DNA of 45,051 bases. Source: Vectrevirus T145P2. Shown piece by piece: positions 11,381 through 36,864 of the stretch. The translations under genes were made by a program, and so were the position numbers. The stretch's first letter is position 1. The number at the start of each line of letters is the position of its first letter. The DNA is taken from the sequence record OZ035747.1; one strand, 5' to 3'. The notes beneath the pieces are model-generated. The model searched no databases. It saw only the letters and a list, made by a program, of their open reading frames with translations, and had not been told where the DNA came from.

Positions 11381-11384
11381 TAAG

Positions 11385-11700: not shown

Positions 11701-11763
11701 CTAGCCTATAGCCTACCTGAGTGGGCTATGTGATACTTACTTACACTATATAAGGTGATTACT

Positions 11764-12648
11764 ATGACTACTGAAAACGTCCTCCTGTCTGTTCGTGAAG
11801 CTGCAACCGCTGAAATCAAGCAGCACTTAGACAATATCGGCACTTCTTACATCAAAGTTGGCGCTTGTCTGAATGAATTACGCGGTGATTTCGAAGGTCA
11901 AAAAGACTTTTTAGCTTATGTAGAATCAGAGTTCGGCATCAAGAAGGCACAATGTTACAAGCTGATGAGTGTAGCCCGTGTCTTTGAAGGAGATGATCGC
12001 TTTAAAGGCGTGGCGATGCGTGTAATGCTGGCGCTTGTTCCTTTCGCTGATGAAAATATAATCATGGAGAAGGCCGCAGAACTCGCCGCAGCTGGCAAGC
12101 TGGACACTAATGCCGTAAACGCCCTGATTGAACCTAAGAAAGAGATAAAGACTGAAACGGTACAATCTAAGGCTGAGGCGGTAAAACCGCAGGAGAACGC
12201 TACTGAGGCCGCAGAATCACAGGAAATGCAAGCGCCGCAGGTAGTGCCACCAGCGAGCGAGCAGGAGGCCGACGAATCAGCACCATGGGAAGAGGAAAGC
12301 AAGCCGGAAGCGCCAAAGGCAGCGCCGCTGGATAACACGGCTAATACAGAAAACGCCGCTATGGCTAGCCTCTTAGCACAAATTAAGGCACTGACTGAGC
12401 AATTACAGGCAGCTAATGACCGCATCGCCTCCTTAAGTAGCGCACGCGAAAGCAAGAAGGCAGCCGCACCTATGCTGCCGCAATTCAAATCTTCCTGCTT
12501 CTATGCTCGCTTAGGTTTAAGCGCTGAGGAGGCAATGAAGAAAACAGCAGTTAACAAGGCACGCCGCGAACTGGTTAAGCTAGGCTACGGTGAAGGCCAT
12601 GAAGCATGGCCCTTAATCTCTGAGGCAGTAGAAGAGTTGACTAAGTAA
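11764..12648 (+). CDS. early protein with DUF3102-like N-terminal domain, acidic Ala/Pro-rich linker and small C-terminal domain
   Basis: TAAGG then ATG 11764; 294 aa; LRGDFEGQKDFLAYVESEFGIKKAQCYKLM motif; low-complexity EAAESQEMQAPQ linker. Confidence 0.7.
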   Translation: MTTENVLLSVREAATAEIKQHLDNIGTSYIKVGACLNELRGDFEGQKDFLAYVESEFGIKKAQCYKLMSVARVFEGDDRFKGVAMRVMLALVPFADENIIMEKAAELAAAGKLDTNAVNALIEPKKEIKTETVQSKAEAVKPQENATEAAESQEMQAPQVVPPASEQEADESAPWEEESKPEAPKAAPLDNTANTENAAMASLLAQIKALTEQLQAANDRIASLSSARESKKAAAPMLPQFKSSCFYARLGLSAEEAMKKTAVNKARRELVKLGYGEGHEAWPLISEAVEELTK

Positions 12649-12711: not shown

Positions 12712-15339
12712 ATGCAAGACCTACACGCTATTCAACTTCAACTTGAAGAAGAAATGTTTAACGGCGGTATCCGTCGCTTTGAAGCTGACCAACAACGCCA
12801 GATTGCATCCGGTAATGAATCAGACACGGCATGGAATCGACGCTTATTGTCCGAACTAATCGCACCTATGGCGGAAGGTATTCAGGCTTACAAGGAAGAA
12901 TACGAAGGCAAGAGAGGTCGTGCACCCCGTGCATTAGCTTTCATTAACTGCGTAGGAAACGAAGTGGCAGCATATATCACCATGAAAATCGTTATGGATA
13001 TGCTGAATACAGACGTTACCTTACAAGCTATCGCTATGAATGTAGCAGACCGCATCGAGGACCAAGTACGTTTTAGCAAGCTGGAAGGTCACGCAGCTAA
13101 GTATTTTGAGAAAGTGAAGAAGTCGCTTAAGGCTAGCAAGACTAAATCTTATCGTCATGCGCACAACGTAGCGGTAGTAGCTGAGAAATCTGTTGCTGAC
13201 CGTGACGCGGATTTCTCCCGTTGGGAGGCATGGCCTAAAGACACCTTGCTGCAAATCGGTATGACCTTGCTCGAAATATTGGAGAATAGTGTATTCTTCA
13301 ATGGTCAACCTGTCTTCCTTCGTACCTTGCGCACTAACGGCGGAAAGCATGGTGTTTACTATTTACAGACCAGTGAACATGTTGGCGAGTGGATAACTGC
13401 ATTTAAGGAACATGTAGCTCAGCTCAGCCCTGCCTATGCACCTTGCGTTATACCTCCCCGCCCTTGGGTATCACCTTTTAACGGTGGGTTTCATACTGAG
13501 AAAGTAGCAAGCCGTATTCGTCTGGTAAAAGGCAATCGTGAGCACGTCCGCAAGCTGACCAAAAAGCAAATGCCAGCCGTTTATAAGGCTGTTAACGCTT
13601 TGCAGGCAACTAAGTGGCAGGTTAATAAAGAGGTTTTACAGGTTGTGGAGGACGTTATACGTCTAGACCTCGGCTATGGTGTGCCTTCCTTTAAACCACT
13701 CATCGACCGTGAGAACAAGCCAGCTAATCCAGTGCCGTTAGAGTTCCAGCACCTGCGAGGCCGTGAACTTAAAGAGATGCTAACGCCGGAACAATGGCAA
13801 GCCTTCATCAACTGGAAAGGCGAATGTACCAAGCTGTATACCGCTGAAACTAAGCGCGGCAGCAAATCGGCGGCGACCGTCCGCATGGTTGGGCAGGCAC
13901 GTAAATACAGCCAGTTTGACGCCATCTACTTCGTGTATGCACTGGACAGCCGCAGCCGCGTCTACGCGCAATCTAGCACGCTCTCTCCGCAATCAAACGA
14001 CTTAGGCAAGGCATTGCTCCGTTTTACCGAAGGGCAGCGCCTCGATAGCGCTGAGGCGCTTAAATGGTTTTTGGTGAACGGGGCTAATAACTGGGGTTGG
14101 GATAAGAAGACTTTTGACGTGCGCACCGCTAACGTGCTGGATAGTGAATTTCAAGACATGTGCCGCGACATTGCAGCGGATCCGCTTACCTTCACTCAAT
14201 GGGTGAATGCCGACTCCCCTTACGGCTTCCTTGCTTGGTGCTTTGAATATGCGCGTTATCTGGATGCACTGGATGAAGGCACGCAAGACCAATTCATGAC
14301 GCACCTCCCCGTCCATCAAGATGGTAGTTGTTCTGGTATCCAGCACTACAGTGCTATGCTACGCGATGCAGTAGGTGCGAAAGCAGTAAACCTTAAGCCC
14401 TCTGATTCTCCTCAAGATATTTATGGTGCCGTTGCGCAGGTAGTAATTCAGAAGAATTATGCATACATGAATGCAGAGGATGCGGAAACCTTCACTTCTG
14501 GCAGCGTGACTTTAACAGGTGCGGAACTGCGTAGCATGGCTAGTGCGTGGGATATGATAGGAATCACTCGCGGCCTGACCAAAAAGCCCGTAATGACACT
14601 ACCTTACGGCAGCACACGTCTAACCTGCCGTGAGTCAGTGATTGATTATATCGTTGATTTGGAAGAAAAAGAGGCCCAACGGGCTATTGCGGAAGGGCGT
14701 ACCGCCAATCCTGTACATCCTTTTGATAATGACCGCAAAGACAGCCTGACACCTAGCGCAGCTTATAACTATATGACAGCTTTAATCTGGCCTTCTATTT
14801 CGGAAGTGGTTAAAGCTCCTATAGTGGCAATGAAAATGATTCGTCAGCTTGCACGTTTCGCAGCTAAAAGAAACGAAGGCTTAGAATATCCCTTACCAAC
14901 TGGCTTCATCTTGCAACAAAAGATAATGGCTACCGATATGCTCCGCGTATCCACTTGCTTGATGGGTGAAATCAAGATGAGTCTCCAGATTGAAACAGAT
15001 GTAGTTGATGAAACGGCAATGATGGGTGCGGCTGCTCCTAACTTCGTCCATGGTCACGATGCTAGCCACCTGATTCTGACTGTATGTGACCTAGTGGATA
15101 AAGGTATTACATCCATTGCAGTCATCCATGATTCTTTCGGTACTCATGCAGGACGTACCGCAGACCTGCGGGATAGCTTAAGGGAAGAAATGGTTAAGAT
15201 GTATCAAAACCATAATGCCCTGCAAAACCTGCTAGATGTGCACGAAGAGCGTTGGTTAGTAGACACCGGAATCCAAGTACCAGAGCAAGGAGAGTTTGAC
15301 CTTAACGAAATCTTAGTTTCAGACTATTGTTTCGCATAA
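12712..15339 (+). CDS. single-subunit DNA-directed RNA polymerase (T7 gp1-like)
   Basis: 875 aa; collinear with T7 RNAP including PFCFLAFCFEY-like [27 protein letters not shown] and IHDSFGTHA motifs. Confidence 0.97.
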
Positions 15340-23866: not shown

Positions 23867-24088
23867 ATGATGAAAGTACAAATCGTAACCCTGCACTGCA
23901 AGAAAGGAATTACAACTCTTGGCGGCAACACTTTTCACTCCTTCTCTGAAGGGGATACATATGCTGACCTGCACTACATCTGGCGCGACGGACAGCACGT
24001 GGTGAACTACAGCGACCCAGCTACGGGGAAACGCCACGGCGTATCGCTTCCGGCGCATGACATTGCTCAGGTGAACACAGTTTTATAA
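23867..24088 (+). CDS. hypothetical protein (73 aa)
   Basis: ORF track. Confidence 0.55.
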   Translation: MMKVQIVTLHCKKGITTLGGNTFHSFSEGDTYADLHYIWRDGQHVVNYSDPATGKRHGVSLPAHDIAQVNTVL

Positions 24089-24089
24089 A

Positions 24090-24105
24090 GTCTCACGTGT
24101 GAGAC
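24090..24105. repeat. 16-bp near-palindrome GTCTCACGTGTGAGAC, copy 4
   Basis: One central change relative to the other copies; 15 nt upstream of promoter 24121. Confidence 0.7.
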
Positions 24106-24120
24106 AAATCGGTGTCCGGT

Positions 24121-24143
24121 ATTTACTGGACACTATAGAAGAG
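24121..24143 (+). promoter_or_regulatory. phage RNAP promoter
   Basis: ATTTACTGGACACTATAGAAGAG. Confidence 0.85.
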
Positions 24144-24193
24144 AAGAATTTTAATCGGCGATAATGCCATAACCAACAAAAGGAGAATTTAAT

Positions 24194-24565
24194 ATGTTCA
24201 AGATTGAAACTATCGTAAACCGTGTTGTTAAAGGTGCTGCTCTGGTATCCGTTGAGTCTTTCATTATCGTCGATGAAGCTGATCAACTGGTAGCTGGTAC
24301 TAAGGCTTACGATACCCGTGAAGAAGCTCAGGCTAAGATTGACAGCATGGGTAACTTCGCTGCTGGTCTGGAGTTCGCTCGTGCTTGCTTCCCTGAGCAG
24401 GCTGACAAAGCCCAGATCGGGAAGGCTAACATCGTAGCTGAATATCTGGATTGGATTGCTGCTGGTAAACCAGTGAAAGAAGTTAAAGCTACTGAAGAAG
24501 CTGAAGCTCCTGCAGTAGAAGTGTCTGCACCGGAAGCTCCGGTTAGCGAAGAGGAAGAGTTTTGA
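24194..24565 (+). CDS. small acidic protein with C-terminal acidic tail ending in Phe (123 aa), own promoter and terminator
   Basis: ORF track; tail APEAPVSEEEEF; flanked by promoter 24121 and terminator 24625. Confidence 0.7.
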   Translation: MFKIETIVNRVVKGAALVSVESFIIVDEADQLVAGTKAYDTREEAQAKIDSMGNFAAGLEFARACFPEQADKAQIGKANIVAEYLDWIAAGKPVKEVKATEEAEAPAVEVSAPEAPVSEEEEF

Positions 24566-24624
24566 TAATAGCAGGTGTAGCCTCTGTTAGTCCTAGTTGA
24601 CTATCACGCTCACCTCATCTAATG

Positions 24625-24657
24625 CCCTGTCTGCCTTAGTGTAGGCAGGGTCTTTTG
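24625..24657 (+). terminator. intrinsic terminator
   Basis: CCCTGTCTGC / GTAGGCAGGG 10-bp stem (with G-U pairs) followed by TCTTTTG; sequence-related to terminator at 33679. Confidence 0.7.
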
Positions 24658-24682
24658 CGTAATAGTTATTGGAGAATGAATT

Positions 24683-24973
24683 ATGCCGACTATTGAAGAT
24701 CGTTTCCAGATTCACGCATCTTACTCGCCTATGCTTAGAGGTCATCTTATTACCATTAGATTAGATTATGAGTTGTATCTTGTAGATTATTTATATACAG
24801 ACTATGACTGCCAACGTAACATGGTGGGACCGATGAGGTGGGCGGCTGAGTGGGTGCGCGAGCACGTGCTGAAGGAGTGGCCTACATGCGACCAAACTTC
24901 GACTTCGGAGCTACAGTATCGGAAGACAATAATCTCATCCTGTGGCCGACTGAAGGTAATCGAATCGCTTTAA
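24683..24973 (+). CDS. hypothetical protein (96 aa) overlapping the exonuclease gene start
   Basis: GGAGA then ATG 24683; 3-prime 88 nt overlap exonuclease in another frame. Confidence 0.4.
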   Translation: MPTIEDRFQIHASYSPMLRGHLITIRLDYELYLVDYLYTDYDCQRNMVGPMRWAAEWVREHVLKEWPTCDQTSTSELQYRKTIISSCGRLKVIESL

Positions 24974-25914
24974 TAGATGCCGATATGTTGCCTTACATCG
25001 TCGCGTATACAATCAGCGACATGACTTATGTACGAGCCACAACTCGTGTTAAGTCAGGACAAGTCCCATCAATCAAAGATACGCCTGAGTGTAAGCAAGC
25101 GTGTGACCGTGTGAACTCCTTGCTTAACTCTTGGGTGTATGCAGCAGAATGTGATGCAGCTAAGTTATTCATGACGAAATCAGAAGCTAACTTCCGTGTC
25201 CGCCTAGCATTCACCAAGCCTTATAAAGGTCAACGTAAGACCGAGAAGCCTCCATTCTTCTATGAATTGCGAGAGCATCTCTTAGAGGTTCACGGTGCAA
25301 TCTTGGCAGATGGAGAGGAAGCAGACGACCTCATGAGTATCGCACAATGGGACAGCCACCGCCGCTTCCAGCAAGATACAGGTAACGAGTTCCCTATCGG
25401 TAGTCCAGAGCATAAAGCATTCTCTGATACTTGCATCGTTTCCTTGGATAAGGATTTGATGATTGTTCCCGGTTGGCATCTACAGCCGGGTCAAGAGAAG
25501 AAGTGGGTAGAGCCTATGGGCTGGCTTGAGCTACGCCGTAAGGCTAATGGGCAAGTCAAAGATCTAAAAGGTGCTGGCCTCATGTTCCACTATGCACAGA
25601 TGATTATCGGTGATGATATTGATAACTATGCTGGCATACCAGGTCGTGGTGCTAAATATGCCTATGATCTTCTCAAAGGTTGTAAGACAGAGAAAGAATT
25701 GTACATGGCAGTGCTTGGTGCTTACAAAGCTAAGTTCGGTCATGGACAGGTTAAGATTAAGAATTACCGAGGTGGTTATCGGGTGGGCAAAGCCTTTGAC
25801 CTTATGCTTGAATGCGGTCGCTTAGCTCACATGGCTAGGTTCAAAGGTGATATATGGCGAGCCGATAAGAACCCAATCTTGTGGGGAGATGATGCGGAAT
25901 GGTTAGCAAATTAA
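24886..25914 (+). CDS. 5-prime to 3-prime exonuclease (T7 gp6-like, FEN family)
   Basis: AAGGAG then ATG 24886; 342 aa; ALIDADMLPY, DDLMSIAQ, SLDKDLMIVP, GDDIDNYAGIPG parallel T7 gp6 motifs. Confidence 0.9.
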   Translation: MRPNFDFGATVSEDNNLILWPTEGNRIALIDADMLPYIVAYTISDMTYVRATTRVKSGQVPSIKDTPECKQACDRVNSLLNSWVYAAECDAAKLFMTKSEANFRVRLAFTKPYKGQRKTEKPPFFYELREHLLEVHGAILADGEEADDLMSIAQWDSHRRFQQDTGNEFPIGSPEHKAFSDTCIVSLDKDLMIVPGWHLQPGQEKKWVEPMGWLELRRKANGQVKDLKGAGLMFHYAQMIIGDDIDNYAGIPGRGAKYAYDLLKGCKTEKELYMAVLGAYKAKFGHGQVKIKNYRGGYRVGKAFDLMLECGRLAHMARFKGDIWRADKNPILWGDDAEWLAN

Positions 25915-26312
25915 AAGCATCGGAGGTGGCAGCTTATAAGAAGGAATTGCTAGATAAGCAAGGATGGAAATGCCCTCTGTGTGGTGGCAGTCTCAAAGCT
26001 GTCACACCTGTAAACCGTGTACTTGACCATGACCATGAGACAGGATTCTGCCGTGCTGTTGTATGCCGAGGTTGCAATGGTGCGGAAGGGAAGATTAAGG
26101 GTGTTATCTCTGGTTATGGCAAGGCGGGTAATAACCGTTACTTCCAGCTTCAATGGTTAGAGAGATTGTACGAATACTGGAAGTTACATAGTACGCCTCA
26201 GACAGATAAGTTATATCACAAACATCAAACGGAGGCAGAGAAGCGCGAGGCTAAGAACCGTAAGGCACGCCTTGCTTATGCAAGAAAGAAGAAGGAGGTT
26301 AAAGTTGGGTAA
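25899..26312 (+). CDS. recombination endonuclease VII-like Holliday junction resolvase
   Basis: 137 aa; CPLCGG...DHDHETG...CRGCNGAEG zinc/His-Me motif. Confidence 0.8.
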   Translation: MVSKLKASEVAAYKKELLDKQGWKCPLCGGSLKAVTPVNRVLDHDHETGFCRAVVCRGCNGAEGKIKGVISGYGKAGNNRYFQLQWLERLYEYWKLHSTPQTDKLYHKHQTEAEKREAKNRKARLAYARKKKEVKVG

Positions 26313-27312
26313 GCTTCGCAGCTTGTACAAAGACTCCGAGGTACTTGATGCAATCGAGCAAGCTACCGACGAGAAAGGTAATGTTAACTACAACGAGATG
26401 GCACGGGTATTATCGTGTCACCCTGTGGGTAAGAAGATTACCCGCCAGTTGGCTCGATACTGGCATGGTCAATTCAAGAAGACCAAGAAGAATGGTGATT
26501 ACTACCAGACTCTTCTGCAAGAGGATAAGCGTATCAAAGAAGAGCGTAAGCTCAGGACTCCTGACCGCTACGAGGATTTGGCTATTGTACCACTGCCTGA
26601 CTCGCCTCATCGAAGTGTACTGGTAATCCCTGACACTCATGCACCTTACGAGCACCCAGATACCTTAGAGTTTCTGGCAGCGGTGGCAGCACGTTACCGT
26701 CCAGACACTGTAGTTCATCTGGGTGATGAGGCAGATAAACATGCCTTATCGTTCCACGATTCAGACCCCAATCTGGATAGTGCTGGCATGGAGTTAGAGA
26801 AGGCCCGTGTCTTTATGCATAAATTACACAAGATGTTTCCTGTGATGCGCCTGTGTCATTCTAATCACGGCTCTATGCACTTCCGTAAGGCAAGCGCTAA
26901 GGGTATCCCTGTGCAATACTTGCGTACCTATCGAGAAGTCTTCTTTCCGCATGGGGGTGGCGACCAGTGGGATTGGCAGCATACACACGTTCTTGAGTTG
27001 CCGAATGGTGAACAGGTTGCATTTAAGCATCAACCAGCAGGCTCAGTCTTAGCAGATGCAGCGCATGAGCGCATGAACTTAGTGTGCGGTCACTTGCATG
27101 GTAAGATGTCGGTGGAGTATGCACGTAACACACATGAACAGTATTGGGCTGTGCAGGGCGGCTGTTTGATTGATGAGTCATCTCGTGCATTTGCCTATGG
27201 TCGTGAGTCCAAATACAAGCCAGCATTAGGTTGTGTGGTTATTCTGGAGGGTGTGCCGCACATTGTCCCGATGCAGACCAATAGTGACAATCGCTGGATT
27301 GGTAAGATTTAG
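26272..27312 (+). CDS. calcineurin-like metallophosphoesterase (start uncertain: TTG 26272, ATG 26278 or TTG 26305 with strong SD)
   Basis: VIPDTHAPYEHPD ... HLGDEADKH ... GHLHGK metal-binding motifs. Confidence 0.8.
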   Translation: MLMQERRRRLKLGKLRSLYKDSEVLDAIEQATDEKGNVNYNEMARVLSCHPVGKKITRQLARYWHGQFKKTKKNGDYYQTLLQEDKRIKEERKLRTPDRYEDLAIVPLPDSPHRSVLVIPDTHAPYEHPDTLEFLAAVAARYRPDTVVHLGDEADKHALSFHDSDPNLDSAGMELEKARVFMHKLHKMFPVMRLCHSNHGSMHFRKASAKGIPVQYLRTYREVFFPHGGGDQWDWQHTHVLELPNGEQVAFKHQPAGSVLADAAHERMNLVCGHLHGKMSVEYARNTHEQYWAVQGGCLIDESSRAFAYGRESKYKPALGCVVILEGVPHIVPMQTNSDNRWIGKI

Positions 27313-27329
27313 TTGACACTATAGAACAA
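27307..27329 (+). promoter_or_regulatory. phage RNAP promoter, SP6-like subclass
   Basis: ATTTAGTTGACACTATAGAACAA, one mismatch from the SP6 promoter ATTTAGGTGACACTATAGAA. Confidence 0.75.
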
Positions 27330-27380
27330 AGGGTAGGTATTAGCTTACCCTTGATTGTATAGTGAATGGAGGAATTAATT

Positions 27381-27851
27381 ATGTCAAAGATTTATATTGG
27401 CGAATACGTCGTACGCCGTGCAGCTTACCGAGATGCCATCTGGAATAAACTGTGTGAAAGCCTAGACAAGAAACCAGATGGGGTATTCAAAGTATCCCGT
27501 GCAGAACCTAATTATAACTCTATTATGTTAGAAGGTGTTGAGAAGCGCGAATGGTATGCACCTTACTTCAAGGTTGTTGACTCATTGCAAGATGAAGATC
27601 CTAGCACGTTGGACAACAATATGGTTACTAAGCCTAAGCACTATGAGTTCTTCGATGGGGTAGAGGCAATCACTATCATTGCTCGTAGTATGACCGAGAA
27701 GCAATTTGCTGGATATTGCATGGGTAACGCTTTGAAGTATCGTCTGCGTGCAGGTAAGAAATTCAATACTGAAGAAGACCTGAAGAAAGCAGACTACTAT
27801 AAAGAGTTATTCCAGAAACATCGTCACGAATGTATTGATGAGGATATTTGA
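27381..27851 (+). CDS. DUF3310-like protein (family of T7 gp1.7 nucleotide kinase)
   Basis: AGGAGG then ATG 27381; KPKHYEFFDGVEAITII...QFAGYCMGNALKYRLRAGKK motif. Confidence 0.55.
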   Translation: MSKIYIGEYVVRRAAYRDAIWNKLCESLDKKPDGVFKVSRAEPNYNSIMLEGVEKREWYAPYFKVVDSLQDEDPSTLDNNMVTKPKHYEFFDGVEAITIIARSMTEKQFAGYCMGNALKYRLRAGKKFNTEEDLKKADYYKELFQKHRHECIDEDI

Positions 27852-27852
27852 T

Positions 27853-27969
27853 ATGACTTGTCCTAATTGTGGAAGTGAAGAAACAGAACATGTAGTTATG
27901 TCAGATACTTATCATTTCTATTTCTGTCATAACTGCGACACTACCATTGAAGAGGAAGAAGCTGTATGA
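27853..27969 (+). CDS. small zinc-ribbon protein (38 aa)
   Basis: CPNCG ... CHNCD pair of CxxC; overlaps neighbours. Confidence 0.4.
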   Translation: MTCPNCGSEETEHVVMSDTYHFYFCHNCDTTIEEEEAV

Positions 27970-28913
27970 ATATCTTTGAGTTCCTAGGTCTTCCAGAAGA
28001 TCACCGCAATCACCCATTCATGCTAGTGAAACATCGCGGTGAAGTCCCTGAGAAGAAACTTACTTTTCCATGTTATGGACAGGTGAAACGAGATGGTATC
28101 TTTTCTGCTGTTGTTGTTCGCACTGATGGTGTCGTTGGCGTTTTTGGTCGCACTGGTAAGAAACTGGCAAACACTGAAGTCCTCGAACAAACATTTGCTA
28201 CCTTTCCGGTTGGCATTTATCTTGGTGAGCTTCAGTCTATGGCCGTTGATATCTACCTTGAAGCTCTATCAGGGGTGGTAAATCCTAATCGTACAGAGCC
28301 GCTTGACTTTATAGGCCAGCAGATTAAAGACAACCTGTATATCGACTTCTTCGATATGTTAACCATTAAGGCATTCCATGATGGATTCACTGATGTTTCT
28401 TATCTCAAACGTTACGATGCTTTACATCGTCGCATCGGCGCTCATCTTAGCGGGTACAACGCTATCCTTCCTATTACTCCTTGCCATAATGAGCGAGAAG
28501 TTGAAGCGTTTGCGCAAGAGCAAATAGACGCAGGCCGAGAGGGTGCTGTGTTTAAACTGGACTGTGATTATGAAGCAGGCCACAAAGGTTATCGTCAGAC
28601 TAAAGAAGTCCGTAAGGTAACTTATGACCTTACTTGTATTGGCTTTGAAGAAGGCAAAGGTAAGTACAAAGGTAAGGTAGCTAACCTCATTTTCAAATGG
28701 AAAGGAGGCAAGACAATCAAAGCTATGTTAGGTAAAGGGTGGACTCATGCAGATGCAGAACAGATGTTCCACGATATTAAACATGGTGGACGATTGAATG
28801 TCATTGGTAAAATCTTTGAAGTAAAAGGTCTTCAGGATTCAAGCAAGGGCAACATTCGTCTGCCCAAAGCGGGAGAATTAAGACATGACAAAGATGAACC
28901 AGATTTCTTTTGA
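27966..28913 (+). CDS. ATP-dependent DNA ligase
   Basis: 315 aa; motif I KRDG; C-terminal RLPKAGELRHDKD resembles ligase motif VI. Confidence 0.85.
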   Translation: MNIFEFLGLPEDHRNHPFMLVKHRGEVPEKKLTFPCYGQVKRDGIFSAVVVRTDGVVGVFGRTGKKLANTEVLEQTFATFPVGIYLGELQSMAVDIYLEALSGVVNPNRTEPLDFIGQQIKDNLYIDFFDMLTIKAFHDGFTDVSYLKRYDALHRRIGAHLSGYNAILPITPCHNEREVEAFAQEQIDAGREGAVFKLDCDYEAGHKGYRQTKEVRKVTYDLTCIGFEEGKGKYKGKVANLIFKWKGGKTIKAMLGKGWTHADAEQMFHDIKHGGRLNVIGKIFEVKGLQDSSKGNIRLPKAGELRHDKDEPDFF

Positions 28914-29100
28914 TAGCATGAAGGCGACTCGTGCAGTTGAGGTAGCAGAAGCTATCTTTGAAACTTTATCCTGTGGCATGGAATTGCCGTATACTTTACT
29001 GGCTGATGCAGAAGAGCTTGGTCTTTCTGTAGAAGCTATCCAAGAGAAGGTTGACGAATTATATGGTACAGACGAAGAAGAAACCGACGATTTCATTTGA
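28885..29100 (+). CDS. acidic hypothetical protein (71 aa)
   Basis: GGGAGA then ATG 28885. Confidence 0.5.
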   Translation: MTKMNQISFDSMKATRAVEVAEAIFETLSCGMELPYTLLADAEELGLSVEAIQEKVDELYGTDEEETDDFI

Positions 29101-29233
29101 AGGAATGGAAATGCTTGAGATGATTCTCAAGCCCTCTTCTCCTAAGGTGACTAAGACTCATGAAGAGTTAATCGTTGATGAAGTTAAGCGTTACATCATG
29201 GATTGTGTCAGAGCACAACTGGTGGTCCAATGA
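29063..29233 (+). CDS. hypothetical protein (start uncertain)
   Basis: Track ORF 29051..29233 uses TTG; ATG candidates at 29063 and 29105. Confidence 0.35.
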   Translation: MVQTKKKPTISFEGMEMLEMILKPSSPKVTKTHEELIVDEVKRYIMDCVRAQLVVQ

Positions 29234-29691
29234 TACGTCCAGCTTCCTTCCTAGATATTCCTGAGATTATAAACCTTGGGAATAAATATGTGGAAGAGGA
29301 AGTCAAGGTTGTAGCCCACCACTCAGCCTCATGGAATGCAGAACAAAGTGCACATAACCTTTGTGCATCTCTTAGTAGAGAAGATTTATTCCTATGGGTT
29401 GCTGTAGATGAAGGGCAGATTGTAGGGTTCCTGTGGGCTGGCTATCACGAGTTGGCCCCTTGGACACCTGTAAGAGTTGCCTCTGACATTCTCTTTTATA
29501 TTATACCAGAGAGGCGAGGAACACTACTTGGTATGCGTCTCATCAAAGCCCTAAAGCAATGGGCTAGTGATAATGAATGCTCTGAGGTTCGCCTGTCTAT
29601 CGCCTCTGGTATTAATGAAGAACGTGTCGGACGTATGTATAAGCGACTTGGCTTTGAACCGTTTGGCACTGTGTATAACCTGAAGTTCTAA
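29230..29691 (+). CDS. GNAT-family N-acetyltransferase
   Basis: ATG 29230; IVGFLWAG ... RRGTLLGMRLIKAL ... RMYKRLGFEP acetyl-CoA-binding core. Confidence 0.7.
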   Translation: MIRPASFLDIPEIINLGNKYVEEEVKVVAHHSASWNAEQSAHNLCASLSREDLFLWVAVDEGQIVGFLWAGYHELAPWTPVRVASDILFYIIPERRGTLLGMRLIKALKQWASDNECSEVRLSIASGINEERVGRMYKRLGFEPFGTVYNLKF

Positions 29692-29700
29692 GGAGATAAC

Positions 29701-29910
29701 ATGAGTGTTGTAAAGAAAGCATTTAAGGCTATCGGTCTTGCTCAAGATGCACCACGTATTGAAGCCAAAGTCCCAGCACAGCAGCTTGAGCGTAAGCCTG
29801 AGACTGAAGCTGAAGATATTCAAATTGGTGCAGGTGGTGATGATGCGACTGCATCTGCAAAAGGTAAGCGCGGCCTTGTCCGTCCGGTAGCTTCTAGCTT
29901 GAAGGTGTAA
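29701..29910 (+). CDS. small virion-associated protein, possibly gp6.7-like
   Basis: 69 aa; position immediately before portal. Confidence 0.4.
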   Translation: MSVVKKAFKAIGLAQDAPRIEAKVPAQQLERKPETEAEDIQIGAGGDDATASAKGKRGLVRPVASSLKV

Positions 29911-29911
29911 T

Positions 29912-31462
29912 ATGAAACAGAGCACAGATTTGGAGTATGGAGGTAAGCGGTCTAAGATACCTAAGCTATGGGAGAAGTTCTCCACTAAACGTAGCTCTTT
30001 CCTTGATAGGGCGAAGCATTACTCCAAATTAACCTTGCCCTATCTGATGAATGACAAAGGTGATAACGAGACTTCGCAGAATGGATGGCAAGGTGTAGGT
30101 GCTCAGGCAACTAATCATCTAGCCAACAAGCTAGCGCAAGTACTATTCCCTGCACAGCGTTCCTTCTTCCGTGTAGACTTAACTGCACAAGGTGAGAAGG
30201 TTCTTAATCAGCGTGGCCTGAAGAAGACAGAGCTAGCTACCATCTTCGCTCAAGTGGAAACACGGGCAATGAAAGAGTTAGAGCAACGTCAATTCCGTCC
30301 TGCTGTAGTGGAAGCATTCAAGCATCTTATTGTTGCTGGTAGCTGTATGCTATACAAGCCGAGCAAAGGTGCAATCAGTGCTATCCCAATGCATCACTAT
30401 GTAGTTAACCGTGATACCAATGGCGACCTGTTAGACATTATCTTACTGCAAGAGAAAGCCTTACGCACCTTTGACCCAGCTACACGTGCTGTAGTAGAGG
30501 TTGGCCTGAAAGGTAAGAAGTGCAAGGAAGATGACAGCGTTAAGCTGTACACACATGCTAAGTATCTTGGTGATGGATTTTGGGAACTCAAGCAATCTGC
30601 TGATGATATCCCTGTGGGTAAGGTGAGTAAAATCAAATCAGAAAAGCTACCTTTCATCCCATTAACTTGGAAGCGAAGCTATGGTGAGGATTGGGGTCGC
30701 CCTCTTGCAGAGGATTACTCCGGTGATTTATTCGTTATCCAATTCTTATCTGAAGCGGTTGCCCGTGGTGCTGCGCTGATGGCAGATATCAAGTACCTGA
30801 TTCGTCCGGGTGCTCAAACTGATGTTGACCACTTTGTTAACTCTGGCACTGGTGAGGTTGTCACTGGTGTAGAAGAAGACATCCATATTGTACAGTTAGG
30901 TAAGTACGCAGACCTCACACCTATTAGCGCGGTTCTAGAGGTATACACTCGCCGTATCGGTGTTGTCTTCATGATGGAGACAATGACACGCCGTGACGCC
31001 GAACGTGTTACTGCTGTAGAAATCCAGCGAGATGCGTTAGAGATTGAGCAGAACATGGGTGGGGTATACTCCCTCTTTGCTACTACTATGCAATCGCCAG
31101 TAGCGATGTGGGGTCTGCTGGAGGCAGGGGAGTCCTTCACTAGTGACTTAGTGGACCCTGTGATTATCACAGGTATTGAAGCTTTAGGACGCATGGCTGA
31201 GTTGGATAAACTGGCTAACTTTGCTCAGTATATGTCACTGCCATTACAATGGCCTGAGCCTGTCCTAGCTGCTGTGAAATGGCCTGACTATATGGATTGG
31301 GTGCGTGGTCAAATCTCTGCTGAACTGCCGTTCCTTAAATCAGCGGAAGAGATGGCACAAGAACAGGAAGCACAGATGCAAGCACAGCAAGCACAGATGC
31401 TTGAAGAAGGTGTGGCTAAGGCCGTGCCGGGTGTAATTCAACAAGAACTTAAGGAGGCGTAA
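29912..31462 (+). CDS. portal (head-tail connector, gp8-like)
   Basis: 516 aa; position and size in canonical structural module. Confidence 0.92.
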   Translation: MKQSTDLEYGGKRSKIPKLWEKFSTKRSSFLDRAKHYSKLTLPYLMNDKGDNETSQNGWQGVGAQATNHLANKLAQVLFPAQRSFFRVDLTAQGEKVLNQRGLKKTELATIFAQVETRAMKELEQRQFRPAVVEAFKHLIVAGSCMLYKPSKGAISAIPMHHYVVNRDTNGDLLDIILLQEKALRTFDPATRAVVEVGLKGKKCKEDDSVKLYTHAKYLGDGFWELKQSADDIPVGKVSKIKSEKLPFIPLTWKRSYGEDWGRPLAEDYSGDLFVIQFLSEAVARGAALMADIKYLIRPGAQTDVDHFVNSGTGEVVTGVEEDIHIVQLGKYADLTPISAVLEVYTRRIGVVFMMETMTRRDAERVTAVEIQRDALEIEQNMGGVYSLFATTMQSPVAMWGLLEAGESFTSDLVDPVIITGIEALGRMAELDKLANFAQYMSLPLQWPEPVLAAVKWPDYMDWVRGQISAELPFLKSAEEMAQEQEAQMQAQQAQMLEEGVAKAVPGVIQQELKEA

Positions 31463-32382
31463 TGTCTTTCTCATTTACTGAACCGTCAACCACTCACCCT
31501 ACTGCTGAAGAGGGTACGGTAGAAACCAAGGAGGTAACAACTGATGCTGCTACTACTGATGCTCCTGCTGACGCTGGCACTGCTGTACAAGATGACAATG
31601 CTGGTGCACAACCTACTGAAGACACCGGAGGAGAAGCTTCTGGACAGCCTTCAGAAGAAGGAGACAATGGCGGAGAGAATGGTGAATCTAAGCCAGATGA
31701 TACCGCGACCGACACTGAGGAAGTGCAGTACTTCTTCGGAGAATATGAAGTAACAGTAGATATACCACAGGATGTTACTGATAGCCTTAAAGAGAAAGGT
31801 ATTGATGCTAAGCAGGTTGCCAAGGAACTCTATGCCAAAGATGGCAAGTTTGAATTGTCCGATGCAACCAAGCAGAAGCTGTATGATGCCTTTGGCAAGT
31901 TTGCAGTAGACGCCTACTTGTCTGGCCTGAAAGCGCAGAATGAAGCCTTCTTCCTGAAGGAAGCCAATGCTGCAAAGGAACTTGAAGCAGCTAACACTCA
32001 GCGCTTCTCTGATGTTTCTAAGGAAGTTGGTGGCGAAGAAGGTTGGTCCCGTCTTGAGGCGTGGGCGCTGGAAGCGCTGTCCGATGACGAACTCACGGCA
32101 TTCAATGCGGTGATGGAGTCTGGCAACCAATACCTCCAGCAATATGCTGTGCGTGAACTAGAAAGCCGCCGTAAAGCTGCACAGGGTGATGACAAGCCAA
32201 ACTTGATTGAGCCATCTGCACCTGCTGCCGCATCTGAGGATAATGGACCCCTGTCTCGCGATCAGTATCTCCGTGAGATGATGACGCTGGGTTCCCGCTT
32301 CGGTACAGACAAGAAAGCTGCTGCTGAGTATCAGGCTAAGCTGGATGCTCGCCGCCGTGCTGGCATGGCTCGCGGTATCTAA
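31462..32382 (+). CDS. capsid assembly scaffolding protein (gp9-like)
   Basis: 306 aa; acidic N-terminus; start overlaps portal stop (TAATG). Confidence 0.85.
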   Translation: MSFSFTEPSTTHPTAEEGTVETKEVTTDAATTDAPADAGTAVQDDNAGAQPTEDTGGEASGQPSEEGDNGGENGESKPDDTATDTEEVQYFFGEYEVTVDIPQDVTDSLKEKGIDAKQVAKELYAKDGKFELSDATKQKLYDAFGKFAVDAYLSGLKAQNEAFFLKEANAAKELEAANTQRFSDVSKEVGGEEGWSRLEAWALEALSDDELTAFNAVMESGNQYLQQYAVRELESRRKAAQGDDKPNLIEPSAPAAASEDNGPLSRDQYLREMMTLGSRFGTDKKAAAEYQAKLDARRRAGMARGI

Positions 32383-32388
32383 TTCAGT

Positions 32389-32411
32389 ATTTACTGGACA
32401 CTATAGAAGGG
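32389..32411 (+). promoter_or_regulatory. phage RNAP promoter upstream of the capsid gene
   Basis: ATTTACTGGACACTATAGAAGGG. Confidence 0.85.
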
Positions 32412-32461
32412 AGAAAAGCTCTCCCTAGTTATCAATTTGATTTATAAGGAGATTATAATAC

Positions 32462-33670
32462 ATGTCTACACCGAATACTCTGACTAACGTTGCTGTATCT
32501 GCATCCGGTGAGGTTGACAGCCTTCTCATTGAGAAGTTTAATGGTAAGGTCAATGAGCAGTACCTGAAAGGTGAGAACATTCTGTCCTACTTTGATGTAC
32601 AAACTGTTACTGGCACTAACACAGTGAGCAACAAATATTTGGGCGAAACTGAGTTGCAGGTGCTAGCACCGGGTCAGTCTCCTAATGCCACCCCTACTCA
32701 GGCGGATAAAAACCAGTTGGTAATTGATACCACTGTCATTGCTCGTAACACTGTGGCTCACATCCACGATGTACAAGGTGACATCGATAGCCTGAAACCA
32801 AAACTGGCTATGAACCAAGCCAAGCAACTGAAACGTCTGGAAGACCAGATGGCAATTCAGCAGATGCTGTTAGGCGGTATTGCTAACACCAAGGCCAAAC
32901 GTAACAAGCCGCGTGTTAAAGGGCATGGCTTCTCTATCAACGTTAACGTAACTGAGAGTGAAGCACTGGCTAACCCTCAGTATGTTATGGCTGCGGTAGA
33001 GTATGCTCTGGAGCAACAGCTTGAGCAGGAAGTGGACATCTCTGATGTAGCTATCATGATGCCGTGGAAGTTCTTCAATGCTCTGCGTGATGCAGACCGA
33101 ATTGTAGATAAGACTTACACTATCAGCCAGTCTGGTGCAACCATTAATGGCTTCGTTCTCTCTTCTTATAACTGCCCTGTGATCCCGTCTAACCGATTCC
33201 CTACCTTCGCTCAGAATCAGGCTCACCACCTGTTGTCTAATGAAGATAACGGCTATCGTTATGACCCTATCGCAGAGATGAATGGTGCAGTTGCTGTTCT
33301 GTTCACTGCCGACGCACTGCTGGTGGGTCGTACCATTGAAGTGACTGGTGACATCTTCTATGAGAAGAAAGAGAAGACTTATTACATTGACACCTTCATG
33401 GCTGAGGGTGCAATCCCTGACCGTTGGGAAGCAGTGTCTGTAGTTACCACTAAACGTAATGCAACTACTGGTGCTGCTGAAGGTTCTGGTGATGATCACG
33501 CAACCGTACTGGCTCGTGCACAGCGTAAGGCTGTATATGTCAAAACCGAAGGTGCTGCGGCTGCATTCTCTGCTGCCCCAGCAGGTATCCAAGCGGAAGA
33601 CCTTGTAGCGGCGGTACGTGCTGTAATGGCAAATGACATCAAGCCGACTGCAATGAAACCTACTGAGTAA
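32462..33670 (+). CDS. major capsid protein (gp10-like)
   Basis: 402 aa; strong codon bias; followed by terminator. Confidence 0.93.
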   Translation: MSTPNTLTNVAVSASGEVDSLLIEKFNGKVNEQYLKGENILSYFDVQTVTGTNTVSNKYLGETELQVLAPGQSPNATPTQADKNQLVIDTTVIARNTVAHIHDVQGDIDSLKPKLAMNQAKQLKRLEDQMAIQQMLLGGIANTKAKRNKPRVKGHGFSINVNVTESEALANPQYVMAAVEYALEQQLEQEVDISDVAIMMPWKFFNALRDADRIVDKTYTISQSGATINGFVLSSYNCPVIPSNRFPTFAQNQAHHLLSNEDNGYRYDPIAEMNGAVAVLFTADALLVGRTIEVTGDIFYEKKEKTYYIDTFMAEGAIPDRWEAVSVVTTKRNATTGAAEGSGDDHATVLARAQRKAVYVKTEGAAAAFSAAPAGIQAEDLVAAVRAVMANDIKPTAMKPTE

Positions 33671-33678
33671 TACCTATG

Positions 33679-33711
33679 CCCTATCTACCTTGCGTAGGTA
33701 GGGTTCTTTTT
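33679..33711 (+). terminator. intrinsic terminator after the capsid gene (T-phi-like position)
   Basis: CCCTATCTAC / GTAGGTAGGG 10-bp stem followed by TTCTTTTT. Confidence 0.75.
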
Positions 33712-33724
33712 GTTAGGAGGATTC

Positions 33725-34462
33725 ATGCCTGTAATTAGACAAACCAGTAAAGTAGGACATATGATGGAAGATGTGGCCTTCCAGATTATTGATAGTAAGC
33801 TGGAAGCGGTAAACTTGTGTATGCGAGCTATTGGTCGTGAGGGTGTGGATTCTCTCGACTCAGGTGACTTGGACGCAGAAGATGCAAGCAAGATGATCGA
33901 CATCGTATCCCAGCGATTCCAGTACAACAAAGGAGGTGGCTGGTGGTTCAATCGTGAACCGAACTGGCAACTTGCACCAGACACTAACGGTGAAGTTAAT
34001 TTACCTAACAACTGCCTAGCAGTATTGCAGTGTTATGCTTTAGGTGAAAAGAAAGTACCTATGACTATGCGAGCAGGTAAGCTCTACTCTACATGGAGTC
34101 ATACCTTTGATATGCGTAAGCATGTGAATGCTAATGGTATGATTCGTCTTACCTTACTTACCTTACTTCCATATGAGCATCTACCTACTAGTGTAATGCA
34201 GGCTATTGCCTATCAAGCTGCTGTAGAGTTTATTGTGTCTAAGGATGCAGATCAGACTAAGCTAGCCACTGCGCAGCAGATAGCCACTCAGCTTCTTATG
34301 GATGTACAATCTGAGCAAATGTCACAGAAGCGATTAAACATGCTGGTACATAACCCCACTCAGCGTCAGTTTGGTATCATGGCTGGTGGCTCTCAGAATG
34401 TACCTGCTTACTCTCATTCACCTTATGAGAGTTGGGCGCTCCGTCCGTGGGAGGATCGTTAA
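33725..34462 (+). CDS. tail tubular protein A (gp11-like)
   Basis: AGGAGG then ATG 33725; 245 aa. Confidence 0.9.
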   Translation: MPVIRQTSKVGHMMEDVAFQIIDSKLEAVNLCMRAIGREGVDSLDSGDLDAEDASKMIDIVSQRFQYNKGGGWWFNREPNWQLAPDTNGEVNLPNNCLAVLQCYALGEKKVPMTMRAGKLYSTWSHTFDMRKHVNANGMIRLTLLTLLPYEHLPTSVMQAIAYQAAVEFIVSKDADQTKLATAQQIATQLLMDVQSEQMSQKRLNMLVHNPTQRQFGIMAGGSQNVPAYSHSPYESWALRPWEDR

Positions 34463-36864
34463 TGGAAGTACAAGGTTCATTAGGTAGACAAATCCAAGGG
34501 ATTAGCCAGCAGCCGCCAGCGGTACGCTTGGATGGTCAGTGCACAGCTATGGTTAATATGATACCTGATGTAGTGAATGGTACTCAATCACGCATGGGTA
34601 CAACTCATATTGCAAAGATACTTGATGCGGGGACTGATGACATGGCCACTCATCATTATCGCAGAGGTGATGGTGATGAAGAGTATTTCTTCACGTTGAA
34701 GAAAGGACAAGTTCCTGAGATATTTGATAAGTATGGGCGCAAATGTAATGTGACTTCACAAGATGCACCTATGACCTACCTCTCTGAGGTTGTTAATCCA
34801 AGGGAAGATGTGCAATTCATGACGATAGCTGATGTTACTTTCATGCTTAATCGTAGGAAAGTAGTTAAAGCTAGTAACAGGAAGTCACCTAAAGTTGGAA
34901 ACAAAGCCATTGTGTTTTGTGCGTATGGTCAATATGGTACATCTTATTCCATTGTAATTAATGGGACCAACGCTGCTAGTTTTAAAACACCGGATGGTGG
35001 AAGTGCAGACCATGTTGAACAAATTCGAACTGAACGTATCACTTCTGAATTGTACGCTAAGTTGCAGCAATGGAGCGGTGTGAGTGACTATGAAATACAA
35101 AGAGACGGTACTAGTATATTTATCGAGAGACGGGATGGTGCTAGCTTTACAATAACAACCACCGATGGTGCAAAAGGTAAGGATTTAGTGGCTATCAAGA
35201 ATAAAGTTAGCTCTACTGACCTACTCCCTTCTCGTGCGCCTGCTGGTTATAAAGTGCAAGTGTGGCCTACTGGCAGCAAACCTGAGTCTCGTTACTGGCT
35301 GCAAGCTGAGCCTAAAGAGGGAAACCTTGTGTCTTGGAAAGAAACAATAGCTGCTGATGTATTACTTGGGTTTGATAAAGGCACAATGCCTTACATTATT
35401 GAACGTACAGGTATCATCGACGGCATAGCTCAATTCAAGATAAGACAAGGTGATTGGGAAGATCGTAAAGTAGGTGATGACTTGACTAACCCTATGCCTT
35501 CTTTTATTGATGAGGAAGTACCCCAGACAATAGGTGGAATGTTCATGGTGCAGAACCGCCTATGCTTTACAGCAGGTGAAGCGGTTATTGCTTCTCGTAC
35601 ATCATACTTCTTCGATTTCTTTCGTTATACGGTTATCTCTGCATTGGCAACTGACCCATTTGATATTTTCTCAGATGCTAGTGAAGTCTACCAGCTAAAA
35701 CATGCAGTGACCTTAGATGGCGCTACCGTGTTGTTCTCTGATAAGTCACAATTCATACTGCCAGGCGATAAGCCTTTAGAGAAGTCAAATGCACTGCTTA
35801 AGCCTGTTACAACATTTGAAGTGAACAATAAGGTGAAGCCAGTAGTAACTGGTGAATCGGTAATGTTTGCCACTAATGATGGTTCTTACTCTGGTGTACG
35901 AGAGTTCTATACAGACTCTTATAGTGACACTAAGAAGGCACAAGCAATCACAAGTCATGTGAATAAGCTTATCGAAGGTAACATTATCAACATGGCAGCA
36001 AGTACCAATGTCAACCGATTGCTTGTCACTACCGATAAATATCGTAACATAATTTACTGCTATGATTGGTTATGGCAAGGTACAGACCGTGTACAATCAG
36101 CATGGCATGTATGGGAGTGGCCTATGGGTACAAAGGTGCGAGGTATGTTTTATTCTGGTGAATTACTTTATCTACTCCTTGAGCGAGGCGATGGCGTCTA
36201 TCTGGAGAAGATGGACATGGGTGATGCACTAACCTATGGTTTGAATGACCGCATCAGAATGGATAGGCAAGCAGAGTTGATCTTCAAGCATTTTAAAGCA
36301 GAAGATGAATGGATATCTGAACCACTTCCTTGGACTCCTACTAACCCAGAACTTTTGGATTGCATCTTAATAGAAGGGTGGGATTCATATATTGGAGGTT
36401 CTTTCCTGTTCAAATATAACCCTAGTGATAACACCTTGTCTACAACCTTTGACATGCATGATGATAACCACGTAAAAGCGAAGGTTATTGTTGGTCAGAT
36501 TTACCCTCAAGAGTTTGAACCAACACCTGTAGTTATCAGAGATAGGCAAGACCGTGTATCCTATATTGATGTACCTGTTGTGGGGTTGGTTCACCTTAAT
36601 CTTGATATGTATCCTGATTTCTCCGTGGAAGTTAAGAATGTGAAGAGTGGTAAAGTACGCAGGGTGCTAGCGTCAAACCGTATAGGTGGTGCTCTCAACA
36701 ACACAGTAGGTTATGTTGAACCAAGGGAGGGTGTCTTCAGATTCCCACTGAGGGCTAAGAGCACGGATGCTGTTTATCGTATTATTGTAGAATCACCTCA
36801 TACATTCCAGCTTCGCGATATTGAGTGGGAAGGGAGCTACAATCCAACCAAAAGGAGGGTCTAA
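34462..36864 (+). CDS. tail tubular protein B (gp12-like)
   Basis: GGGAGGA then ATG 34462; 800 aa; N-terminal GISQQPP as in T7 gp12. Confidence 0.93.
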   Translation: MEVQGSLGRQIQGISQQPPAVRLDGQCTAMVNMIPDVVNGTQSRMGTTHIAKILDAGTDDMATHHYRRGDGDEEYFFTLKKGQVPEIFDKYGRKCNVTSQDAPMTYLSEVVNPREDVQFMTIADVTFMLNRRKVVKASNRKSPKVGNKAIVFCAYGQYGTSYSIVINGTNAASFKTPDGGSADHVEQIRTERITSELYAKLQQWSGVSDYEIQRDGTSIFIERRDGASFTITTTDGAKGKDLVAIKNKVSSTDLLPSRAPAGYKVQVWPTGSKPESRYWLQAEPKEGNLVSWKETIAADVLLGFDKGTMPYIIERTGIIDGIAQFKIRQGDWEDRKVGDDLTNPMPSFIDEEVPQTIGGMFMVQNRLCFTAGEAVIASRTSYFFDFFRYTVISALATDPFDIFSDASEVYQLKHAVTLDGATVLFSDKSQFILPGDKPLEKSNALLKPVTTFEVNNKVKPVVTGESVMFATNDGSYSGVREFYTDSYSDTKKAQAITSHVNKLIEGNIINMAASTNVNRLLVTTDKYRNIIYCYDWLWQGTDRVQSAWHVWEWPMGTKVRGMFYSGELLYLLLERGDGVYLEKMDMGDALTYGLNDRIRMDRQAELIFKHFKAEDEWISEPLPWTPTNPELLDCILIEGWDSYIGGSFLFKYNPSDNTLSTTFDMHDDNHVKAKVIVGQIYPQEFEPTPVVIRDRQDRVSYIDVPVVGLVHLNLDMYPDFSVEVKNVKSGKVRRVLASNRIGGALNNTVGYVEPREGVFRFPLRAKSTDAVYRIIVESPHTFQLRDIEWEGSYNPTKRRV

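Follow-up and report, generated by a model that had tools for sequence, protein, structure and literature searches.

A conserved, already annotated GNAT acetyltransferase gene of a Vectrevirus genome lies in the genomic slot of the phage acetyltransferase Rac

Acetyltransferase genes located shortly before the structural module are already known from SP6-like phages. Gene 27 of phage K1-5 (YP_654128), gene 28 of SP6 (AAP48767) and dozens of other records had been annotated as 'acetyltransferase' before. In our literature search, no experimental study of SP6 gp28, K1-5 gp27 or any member of the protein family PHROG 1249 was found. When SP6 gp28 and K1-5 gp27, the functions of other phage GNATs and T7 gene 7 were searched together, the only relevant paper was that on Rac, which is gp28 of phage LUZ19 (PMC7552054). 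When Rac alone was expressed, the RNA polymerase of P. aeruginosa lost the C-terminal domain of its alpha subunit (PMC7552054). Rac expressed in this way was toxic, uridine incorporation was decreased by 76%, and a general increase in lysine acetylation was found (PMC7552054). Alanine substitutions in the acetyl-CoA pocket abolished the effect, and neither the protease nor the direct acetylation target was identified by the authors (PMC7552054). A homologue encoded by phage LKA1 at the same location as Rac did not give alpha cleavage (PMC7552054). Therefore, the function exerted from this location is lineage-specific. The gene order in LUZ19 is gp27-gp28-gp29-gp30(portal)-gp31, and this slot, between a small upstream ORF and a small virion protein followed by the portal and scaffold genes, is the one which is compared below.

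The window, that is the whole stretch of 45,051 bp analysed here (OZ035747.1, Vectrevirus T145P2), is a complete genome, circularly permuted relative to the K1-5 map. The genome is 97–98% identical to those of K1E and K1-5. The 3.6 kb around the GNAT gene are 97–98.5% identical to Escherichia phages KAW1A4500, K1E and K1-5 and to many records named 'Vectrevirus'. K1-5 gene 27 is the same gene with identical neighbours, and its identity outside an insertion is 99%. This insertion is an in-frame partial duplication of 22 aa in the alpha1-alpha2 loop of the K1-5 reference copy, and it is absent from the GNAT studied here. SP6 gene 28 is also the same gene with identical neighbours, at 75% identity. 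A protein record of Vectrevirus T145P2 is 100% identical to the GNAT. There is nothing new in the gene itself, because the identical protein has already been deposited and annotated. The features of the region used in the following are given below.

27307..27327, + strand: SP6-type phage RNA polymerase promoter ATTTAGTTGACACTATAGAAC, with 2 mismatches to the SP6 consensus
27966..28913, + strand: ATP-dependent DNA ligase, the last recognisable DNA-metabolism gene
29105..29233, + strand: upstream small ORF of 42 aa, homologue of K1-5 gene 26 and SP6 gene 27, PHROG 6507
29221..29225, + strand: GGTGG, a weak Shine-Dalgarno-like motif read from the sequence, 4 nt 5' of the GNAT ATG
29230..29691, + strand: GNAT acetyltransferase CDS of 153 aa, orthologue of K1-5 gene 27 and SP6 gene 28, PHROG 1249
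29701..29910, + strand: T7 gp7.3-like small ORF of 69 aa (PHROG 9033, E 1.1e-12; PHROG 1320, E 9.7e-12)
29912..31462, + strand: portal (head-tail adaptor) of 516 aa, the first large structural gene, 220 nt past the GNAT stop
31462..32382: scaffold
32462..33670: major capsid
33678..33704, + strand: strong terminator-like hairpin (11-bp stem and T run) after the major capsid gene, the first strong one downstream of the GNAT gene
4329, 11489, 17744, 18631, 22207, 24121, 27307 and 32389, + strand: SP6-type promoters

The GNAT ORF runs from the ATG at 29230 to the TAA stop at 29689–29691. An in-frame TTG at 29203 would extend the protein by 9 residues. However, the ATG at 29230 is the right start because the homologues all begin with MIRPA. 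The protein matched the Pfam models PF00583 (Acetyltransf_1; 40.6 bits against a cutoff of 20.7, E 3.4e-10), PF13508 (Acetyltransf_7; 38.1 bits against a cutoff of 27, E 2.1e-9) and PF13673 (Acetyltransf_10; E 1.6e-5). The 'acetyltransferase' profile of PHROG 1249 covered residues 1–151 with E 2.4e-53. The assignment to the GNAT superfamily is far beyond chance. An AlphaFold2 model built with 20 homologues had a mean pLDDT of 89.4 and a pTM of 0.85, and its topology was complete (b1-a1-a2-b2-b3-b4-a3-b5-a4-b6-b7). The initial annotation had described positions 29230–29691 as a complete GNAT encoded just before the structural module. Both statements were borne out: the coordinates are exact, the Pfam, PHROG 1249 and AlphaFold2 results agree, the ligase gene lies upstream, and the gp7.3-like ORF, portal, scaffold and capsid genes follow.

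The residues conserved in 142 representatives of the family are R3, D9, E23, G66, A84, D86, Y90, P93, R96 and G97, together with A/G101, L104, W111, A112, G127, Y137, G141 and G146. A putative motif A loop is formed by P93-E-R-R96-G97-T-L-L-G101. Its spacing is 1–2 residues off the textbook Q/R-x-x-G-x-G/A, and the Pfam alignment spans the loop. R96 is conserved in 139/142 sequences, G97 in 125/142 and A/G101 in 128/142. From the established knowledge on GNAT structure and function, we take R96-G97...G101 to be the acetyl-CoA pyrophosphate loop. Motif B is present in alpha4 as N129-E-E-R132-V-G-R-M-Y137-K-R-L-G141-F142. Position 137 carries Y in 102 of the 142 sequences and F in another 17, and position 141 is G in 137 of them. 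Y137 presumably serves as the general acid, which is the usual role of this residue in GNATs. D86 lies midway along beta4, where the general base of GNATs is usually located, and is assumed here as a candidate only. As judged from its sequence, the protein is a minimal single-domain GNAT acetyltransferase with its predicted catalytic residues intact.

The gene is widespread in this group of phages. Seventy-seven records matched the 3.6-kb region at a nucleotide identity of at least 80%, and the same number (77) carried the GNAT at an amino acid identity of at least 80%. The ORF was intact, with 150–164 aa, in 31/31 IMG/VR loci, which were gathered with the close-relative alignment and are mostly SP6-like. 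An HMM search of the whole library gave 5,897 relatives at E<=1e-3, of which 1,237 reached E<=1e-10. Among the 150 relatives listed, nearly all were about 150 aa long, and several of the 10 relatives checked were on contigs of 37–46 kb, which is the range of podophage genomes. The dN/dS value of the GNAT gene was 0.065 against Citrobacter phage CrRp3 and 0.127 against SP6, compared with 0.04–0.05 for the portal gene and 0.15 for the ligase gene; dS was near saturation, so that these ratios are rough, and their direction is clear. The ratios indicate that the gene is under purifying selection. Its GC content is 44.6%, against 44.9% for the genome. A recent horizontal acquisition as a moron was considered and rejected, since the GC content is that of the genome, the position is fixed, and the identity declines with taxonomic distance. 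The GNAT is present in phages of very different hosts, among them Escherichia, Vibrio, Pseudomonas and Roseobacter. The overall result is that the GNAT is a core gene of SP6-like phages, which is inherited vertically. It is kept at a fixed position and under strong purifying selection in a large set of podophages of the therapeutic type, whose hosts include K1 E. coli, Klebsiella, Salmonella, Proteus, Erwinia and Vibrio.

The small ORF upstream of the GNAT gene has two possible starts, the ATG at 29105 (42 aa) and a TTG at 29051 (60 aa). Its TGA and the ATG of the GNAT gene lie within a 4-nt overlap (ATGA, 29230–29233). This overlap is kept in 30/31 IMG/VR loci and suggests translational coupling of the GNAT to the small ORF. 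The 69-aa ORF downstream matched PHROG 1320, the 'host range and adsorption protein' family of T7 gp7.3. An antisense ORF at 29551–29985 (144 aa) was judged spurious, since the recognised genes and promoters are all on the + strand and the ORF has no counterpart in the K1-5 annotation. The genome contains 8 matches to the SP6-type promoter, where 0 were expected, and all of them are on the + strand. The promoter at 27307 is the closest one upstream of the GNAT gene and the next promoter is at 32389. In the scanned range of 24000–35000, the only strong terminator-like hairpins were at 24624–24651 and 33678–33704. Besides the GNAT gene and the gp7.3-like ORF, the interval from the promoter at 27307 to the hairpin at 33678 contains the genes for a DUF3310 protein and the ligase, two small ORFs, and the portal and scaffold genes. 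This placement suggests that the GNAT is made mid-to-late by the phage RNA polymerase.

The order small ORF, GNAT, gp7.3-like or small virion protein, portal and scaffold was found in all 31 IMG/VR loci, in which the portal gene starts 174–244 nt after the GNAT stop. The same order was found in the Molineuxvirinae (K1-5, SP6 and CrRp3), the Colwellvirinae (uligo and phi-A318) and the Krylovirinae (LUZ19 and phiNV3), as well as in J8-65 (Bonnellvirus) and M1.1 (Ghunavirus, Studiervirinae). Overlaps of 1 or 4 nt with the upstream ORF recur in the other subfamilies. In phiKMV-like and gh-1-like phages, the occupant of the slot belongs to the Rac family. The initial annotation had stated that the position at the replication/structural boundary gives no clue to the function. 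This was too pessimistic, because the slot upstream of the gp7.3-like and portal genes is conserved and holds Rac in phiKMV-like phages. Rac (PHROG 3986) and the GNAT studied here are both proteins of the GNAT superfamily of about 150 aa. Both genes overlap a small upstream ORF and are followed directly by genes for a small virion protein, portal and scaffold.

By sequence and fold, on the other hand, the GNAT falls outside the Rac family. BLASTP of the GNAT against Rac gave no alignment, and the GNAT had no match to PHROG 3986 at E<=0.01. PHROG 3986 contains Rac, M1.1 gp33, J8-65 gp30 and phiNV3 gp28, and PHROG 1249 contains the GNAT studied here and uligo gp27. In the reverse direction, Rac, J8-65 gp30 and phiNV3 gp28 matched PHROG 1249 at E 1.5e-5 to 4.9e-4, matches that were no better than those to the generic Pfam GNAT models, and M1.1 gp33 gave no match to PHROG 1249. 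Against a profile of 142 sequences of the PHROG 1249-type GNAT family, Rac scored 15 bits only. Therefore, a designation as Rac orthologue by sequence was dropped. The Rac-family proteins matched only the N-terminal two-thirds of the GNAT profiles and are without motif B, whereas the GNAT studied here has this motif. When the two families were compared by hhalign, the probability was 88.6% with E 2.6e-6, over only 81 columns from beta2 to beta5. In a BFVD fold search, the model of the Rac-like protein of phiNV3 was at rank 30 among the viral neighbours with a TM of 0.45, behind many unrelated phage GNATs. When an HMM of the Rac/gp7 family was run against the 414 six-frame ORFs of the genome, the GNAT was the sole match (13.5 bits, E 0.0012). 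The GNAT and Rac belong to the same superfamily and occupy the same slot, and the GNAT is possibly either an ancient orthologue diverged beyond recognition or the product of an in-situ replacement.

The known GNATs did not give a substrate. The solved minimal GNATs with which the protein was compared are archaeal Ard1/Naa10 (4r3k), Naa60 (5icw), BH1408 (4e0a), PAT/BAR/ArsN (5t7d and 5jtf), AAC(6')-Iy (1s3z) and Dpa (8a9o), and no subfamily stands out among them. The best NCBIfam equivalog score (RimI, AAC(6'), ArsN1 and MshD) was 27.7 bits against cutoffs of 86–325, so that none passed; the scores were 5- to 20-fold under the cutoffs. The substrate is not transferable from the solved GNATs because the identity is just 14–25%, no subfamily stands out, and the equivalog scores are below the cutoffs. 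Domain fusions were also searched for as Rosetta-stone clues in 150 distant representatives, and tandem GNAT-GNAT proteins only were found. The candidate substrates were not told apart by any search result. The initial annotation had named a host protein, a phage protein or a small molecule as possible substrates. This is upheld, and the fold and profile searches place the GNAT in no substrate-defined subfamily.

The reading which we tentatively prefer, with a rough probability of 0.4, is that the GNAT is an enzyme which stays out of the virion, is expressed from a phage promoter and would acetylate one or more host proteins mid-to-late in infection as a part of host takeover. It is proposed because Rac, the sole characterised occupant of the slot, acts that way. 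In the proposed mechanism, the phage RNA polymerase would transcribe the gene from the promoter at 27307 in mid-to-late infection, and translation may be coupled to the small upstream ORF. The enzyme would then acetylate amino groups on host proteins in an acetyl-CoA-dependent manner, and in this way host functions would be reprogrammed or shut off. The GNAT is probably not a virion component, because gp7 of phiPsa17, which is the equivalent in this slot, was absent from the virion proteome. In a comparison of the early genes with PHROGs, the sole recognised function was an Ocr-like protein. The gp0.7 kinase and a gp2-type RNA polymerase inhibitor were not recognised in this comparison, which leaves room for a host-shutoff factor. 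As a caveat, the connection with Rac is one of position and superfamily only. Cleavage of RNA polymerase alpha as the specific outcome is unlikely, because this activity is genus-specific even among the relatives of Rac. The finding is correct and ordinary, an annotated and conserved phage GNAT, and its value is the testable hypothesis given by the slot. The slot in common with Rac is the only new lead, as Rac is the sole phage acetyltransferase of the virus family with a known host-shutoff role, and it gives a concrete hypothesis on the role of the GNAT which can be directly tested in E. coli.

Two other readings were considered somewhat improbable, to a similar degree. One is that the GNAT modifies the virion or its assembly by acetylating the N-terminus or lysines of co-transcribed phage structural proteins. 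Its targets would be the gp7.3-like protein, the portal, the scaffold or internal proteins, and the enzyme itself, unpackaged, would tune assembly or infectivity. The co-transcription with the portal and scaffold genes is in line with this, and N-terminal acetyltransferases are among the nearest folds of the GNAT model. Moreover, the GNAT gene tracks the start of the structural module whatever precedes it, which is the ligase gene in SP6-like phages and Colwellvirinae, the RNA polymerase gene in phiKMV-like phages and J8-65, and an exonuclease gene followed by small ORFs in the gh-1-like M1.1. In SIO1, a phage of a different family, the GNAT gene is located among the tail genes. However, gene order is generally conserved in the phage family, so that the linkage is weak evidence. 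The occupant of the slot in T7 is labelled 'host range' and lies beside gp7.3, labelled 'host range and adsorption', which would agree with this reading, but the 'host range' of T7 is an annotation label. In addition, Rac expressed alone acts on the host, and a report of acetylated virion proteins was not found. In the other reading, the enzyme acts on a small molecule, for example a polyamine, an analogue of an amino acid or a metabolite resembling an aminoglycoside. Its acetylation would adapt the metabolism of the host to the packaging or replication of DNA, or would serve detoxification. The best PDB sequence matches can be cited for it, and they are weak and mixed: the polyamine acetyltransferase Dpa (8a9o, E 2.7e-5), SSAT2, AAC(6') and phosphinothricin acetyltransferases. 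The best NCBIfam models after the generic GNAT model were ArsN1 and AAC(6'), and Foldseek gave a TM of 0.78–0.81 to PAT/BAR/ArsN. These matches are, however, far under the family cutoffs (27 bits against 124–210), and small-molecule GNATs (polyamine, phosphinothricin/ArsN and AAC(6')) score level with protein acetyltransferases against the GNAT. No metabolic partner gene is nearby. As the gene is conserved in phages of very different hosts, a toxin or antibiotic particular to one host is less likely as the substrate, but this does not speak against a universal metabolite, for example spermidine.

The remaining readings are less probable. Anti-defence genes are usually early, variable and patchy in their distribution. 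The GNAT gene, in contrast, is inferred to be mid-to-late and is a core gene that keeps its position, evolves under strong purifying selection and occurs in phages of many unrelated hosts. It is therefore improbable that the enzyme acetylates and inactivates a host immune protein. A precedent for a phage-borne GNAT of this kind is the anti-CRISPR AcrVA5, which disables Cas12a (cited in PMC7552054), and the 'host range' label on the T7 occupant would be consistent with it. The core and fixed location of the GNAT gene is unlike that of typical anti-defence genes. Hardly probable at all is a toxin of the TacT/AtaT/KacT type, which would arrest host translation by acetylation of charged tRNA with the overlapping upstream ORF as an antitoxin-like partner. 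Its layout is that of a GNAT toxin-antitoxin pair, with the ATGA overlap in nearly all of the IMG/VR loci and the shorter or equal overlaps elsewhere, and Rac is toxic when expressed alone. However, a toxin-like role is disfavoured because the upstream ORF carries no antitoxin (DUF1778/RHH) domain and TacT-like folds were not matched: the structures of TacT, AtaT and KacT were not among the top 50–60 fold matches. The upstream ORFs also fall into unrelated PHROGs, subfamily by subfamily, and with the missing antitoxin domain this led us to reject the toxin-antitoxin idea for the overlapping ORF. In addition, a block of translation during late protein synthesis would harm the phage.

The equivalent slot in T7 is occupied by the product of gene 7, next to gene 7.3. 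T7 gene 7 encodes 133 aa annotated as 'host range', lies directly upstream of gene 7.3 and defines PHROG 2746. Direct similarity between T7 gp7 and the GNAT studied here is not detectable, and T7 gp7 had no Pfam GNAT match. T7 gp7 matched the Rac family PHROG 3986 weakly (E 0.025). J8-65 gp30 matched Pfam GNAT at E 1.4e-7, the Rac family at E 2.9e-44 and PHROG 2746 at E 2.2e-12, and phiNV3 gp28 matched PHROG 2746 at E 1.4e-6.

These profile matches suggest that T7 gene 7, which occupies the same slot, is a degenerate Rac relative. A broader reading, which we consider rather unlikely, is that the slot holds one ancient GNAT-derived lineage across the T7 supergroup, all members of which act on a common class of targets. 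The lineage may then exist in three forms, PHROG 1249 in SP6-like phages and Colwellvirinae, Rac (PHROG 3986) in phiKMV-like and gh-1-like phages, and the degenerate gene 7 (PHROG 2746) in T7. The targets may belong to the transcription machinery of the host, or they may be the small ejected virion proteins encoded next to the slot. If this broader reading were true, K1-5 gp27, Rac and T7 gene 7 would be one functional system. The link to T7 gene 7, if true, would give a molecular handle on a gene which is annotated as 'host range' only. The authors who described phiPsa17 named its Rac-like gene 'gp7'.

Three loci from other phages bear on the relation of T7 gene 7 to the Rac/GNAT family.

L007:1631-2029, T7 gene 7, annotated 'host range' (PHROG 2746), in the slot upstream of gene 7.3
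L004:2390-2806, cited alongside T7 gene 7 for the Rac/GNAT-family relation
L005:2474-2902, cited for the same relation

In the PHROG search, J8-65 gp30, a GNAT by Pfam, matched both PHROG 3986, to which Rac belongs (E 2.9e-44), and PHROG 2746 (E 2.2e-12). T7 gp7 itself matched PHROG 3986 with an E value of 0.025, and its Pfam search gave no match. On these sequence matches, T7 gene 7, which occupies the same slot, appears to be a degenerate relative of the Rac/GNAT family.

The following loci hold individual copies or homologues of the gene, or a neighbour in the same record.

L002:4266-4790, K1-5 gene 27, set against 29230-29688 of the window
L013:2501-2962, GNAT annotated in two fragments, Escherichia phage vB_Eco_Sem2 (PV775413)
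L013:4733-5459, scaffold gene of the same record, also in pieces
L010:2974-3435, distant homologue (27% identity), Roseobacter phage SIO1 (Zobellviridae)
L039:4001-4495, longer GNAT of 164 aa, IMG/VR UViG_2706795706

The K1-5 reference protein, 175 aa long, carries an in-frame 22-aa insertion in its alpha1-alpha2 loop, HHSASWNAEQSAITFVHLLIET, amounting to a partial tandem duplication. This segment was found neither in the window GNAT nor in any other aligned homologue, and it may have originated as a lab-stock mutation or as a sequencing artefact. If it is real, it suggests that the GNAT gene tolerates disruption in culture. The split GNAT of vB_Eco_Sem2 points to frameshift sequencing errors rather than to a true loss of the gene, because the essential scaffold gene is fragmented in the same record. 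In SIO1, a phage outside Autographiviridae, the homologue lies among tail genes, flanked by 'tail appendage' and gp26.1/gp26, again inside the structural region. The GNAT of UViG_2706795706 (61% identity) is the sole longer case in the 31 IMG/VR loci. It starts with ATGG instead of ATGA and at its 3' end runs into the beginning of the gp7.3-like ORF. The locus probably represents a Proteus-phage-like lineage.

The window spans an entire Vectrevirus genome, circularly permuted relative to the K1-5 map, and no terminal repeat common to its two ends was found.

722-2659, terminase large subunit
2754-3098 (+) and 3117-3410 (+), a tandem pair of small paralogous ORFs, 3' of the terminase
4371-8389, two tailspikes
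9762-12648, early region, upstream of the RNA polymerase
11051-11380, Ocr-like anti-restriction protein
12712-15339, RNA polymerase
29551-29985 (-), antisense ORF of 144 aa, overlapping the GNAT 3' end and the gp7.3-like gene

The Ocr-like gene is the only recognisable one in the early region, where PHROG detected neither a T7 gp0.7 kinase nor a gp2-type host RNA polymerase inhibitor. The antisense ORF is probably spurious, since every recognised gene and promoter of the window is on the + strand and the K1-5 annotation has no counterpart of it. Both tandem small ORFs matched the N-terminal 100 positions of PHROG 2725, which is named 'acetyl-CoA acetyltransferase', a name also copied in RefSeq K1-5. 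Their size, under 100 aa, rules out thiolases; therefore the name looks like a propagated misannotation.
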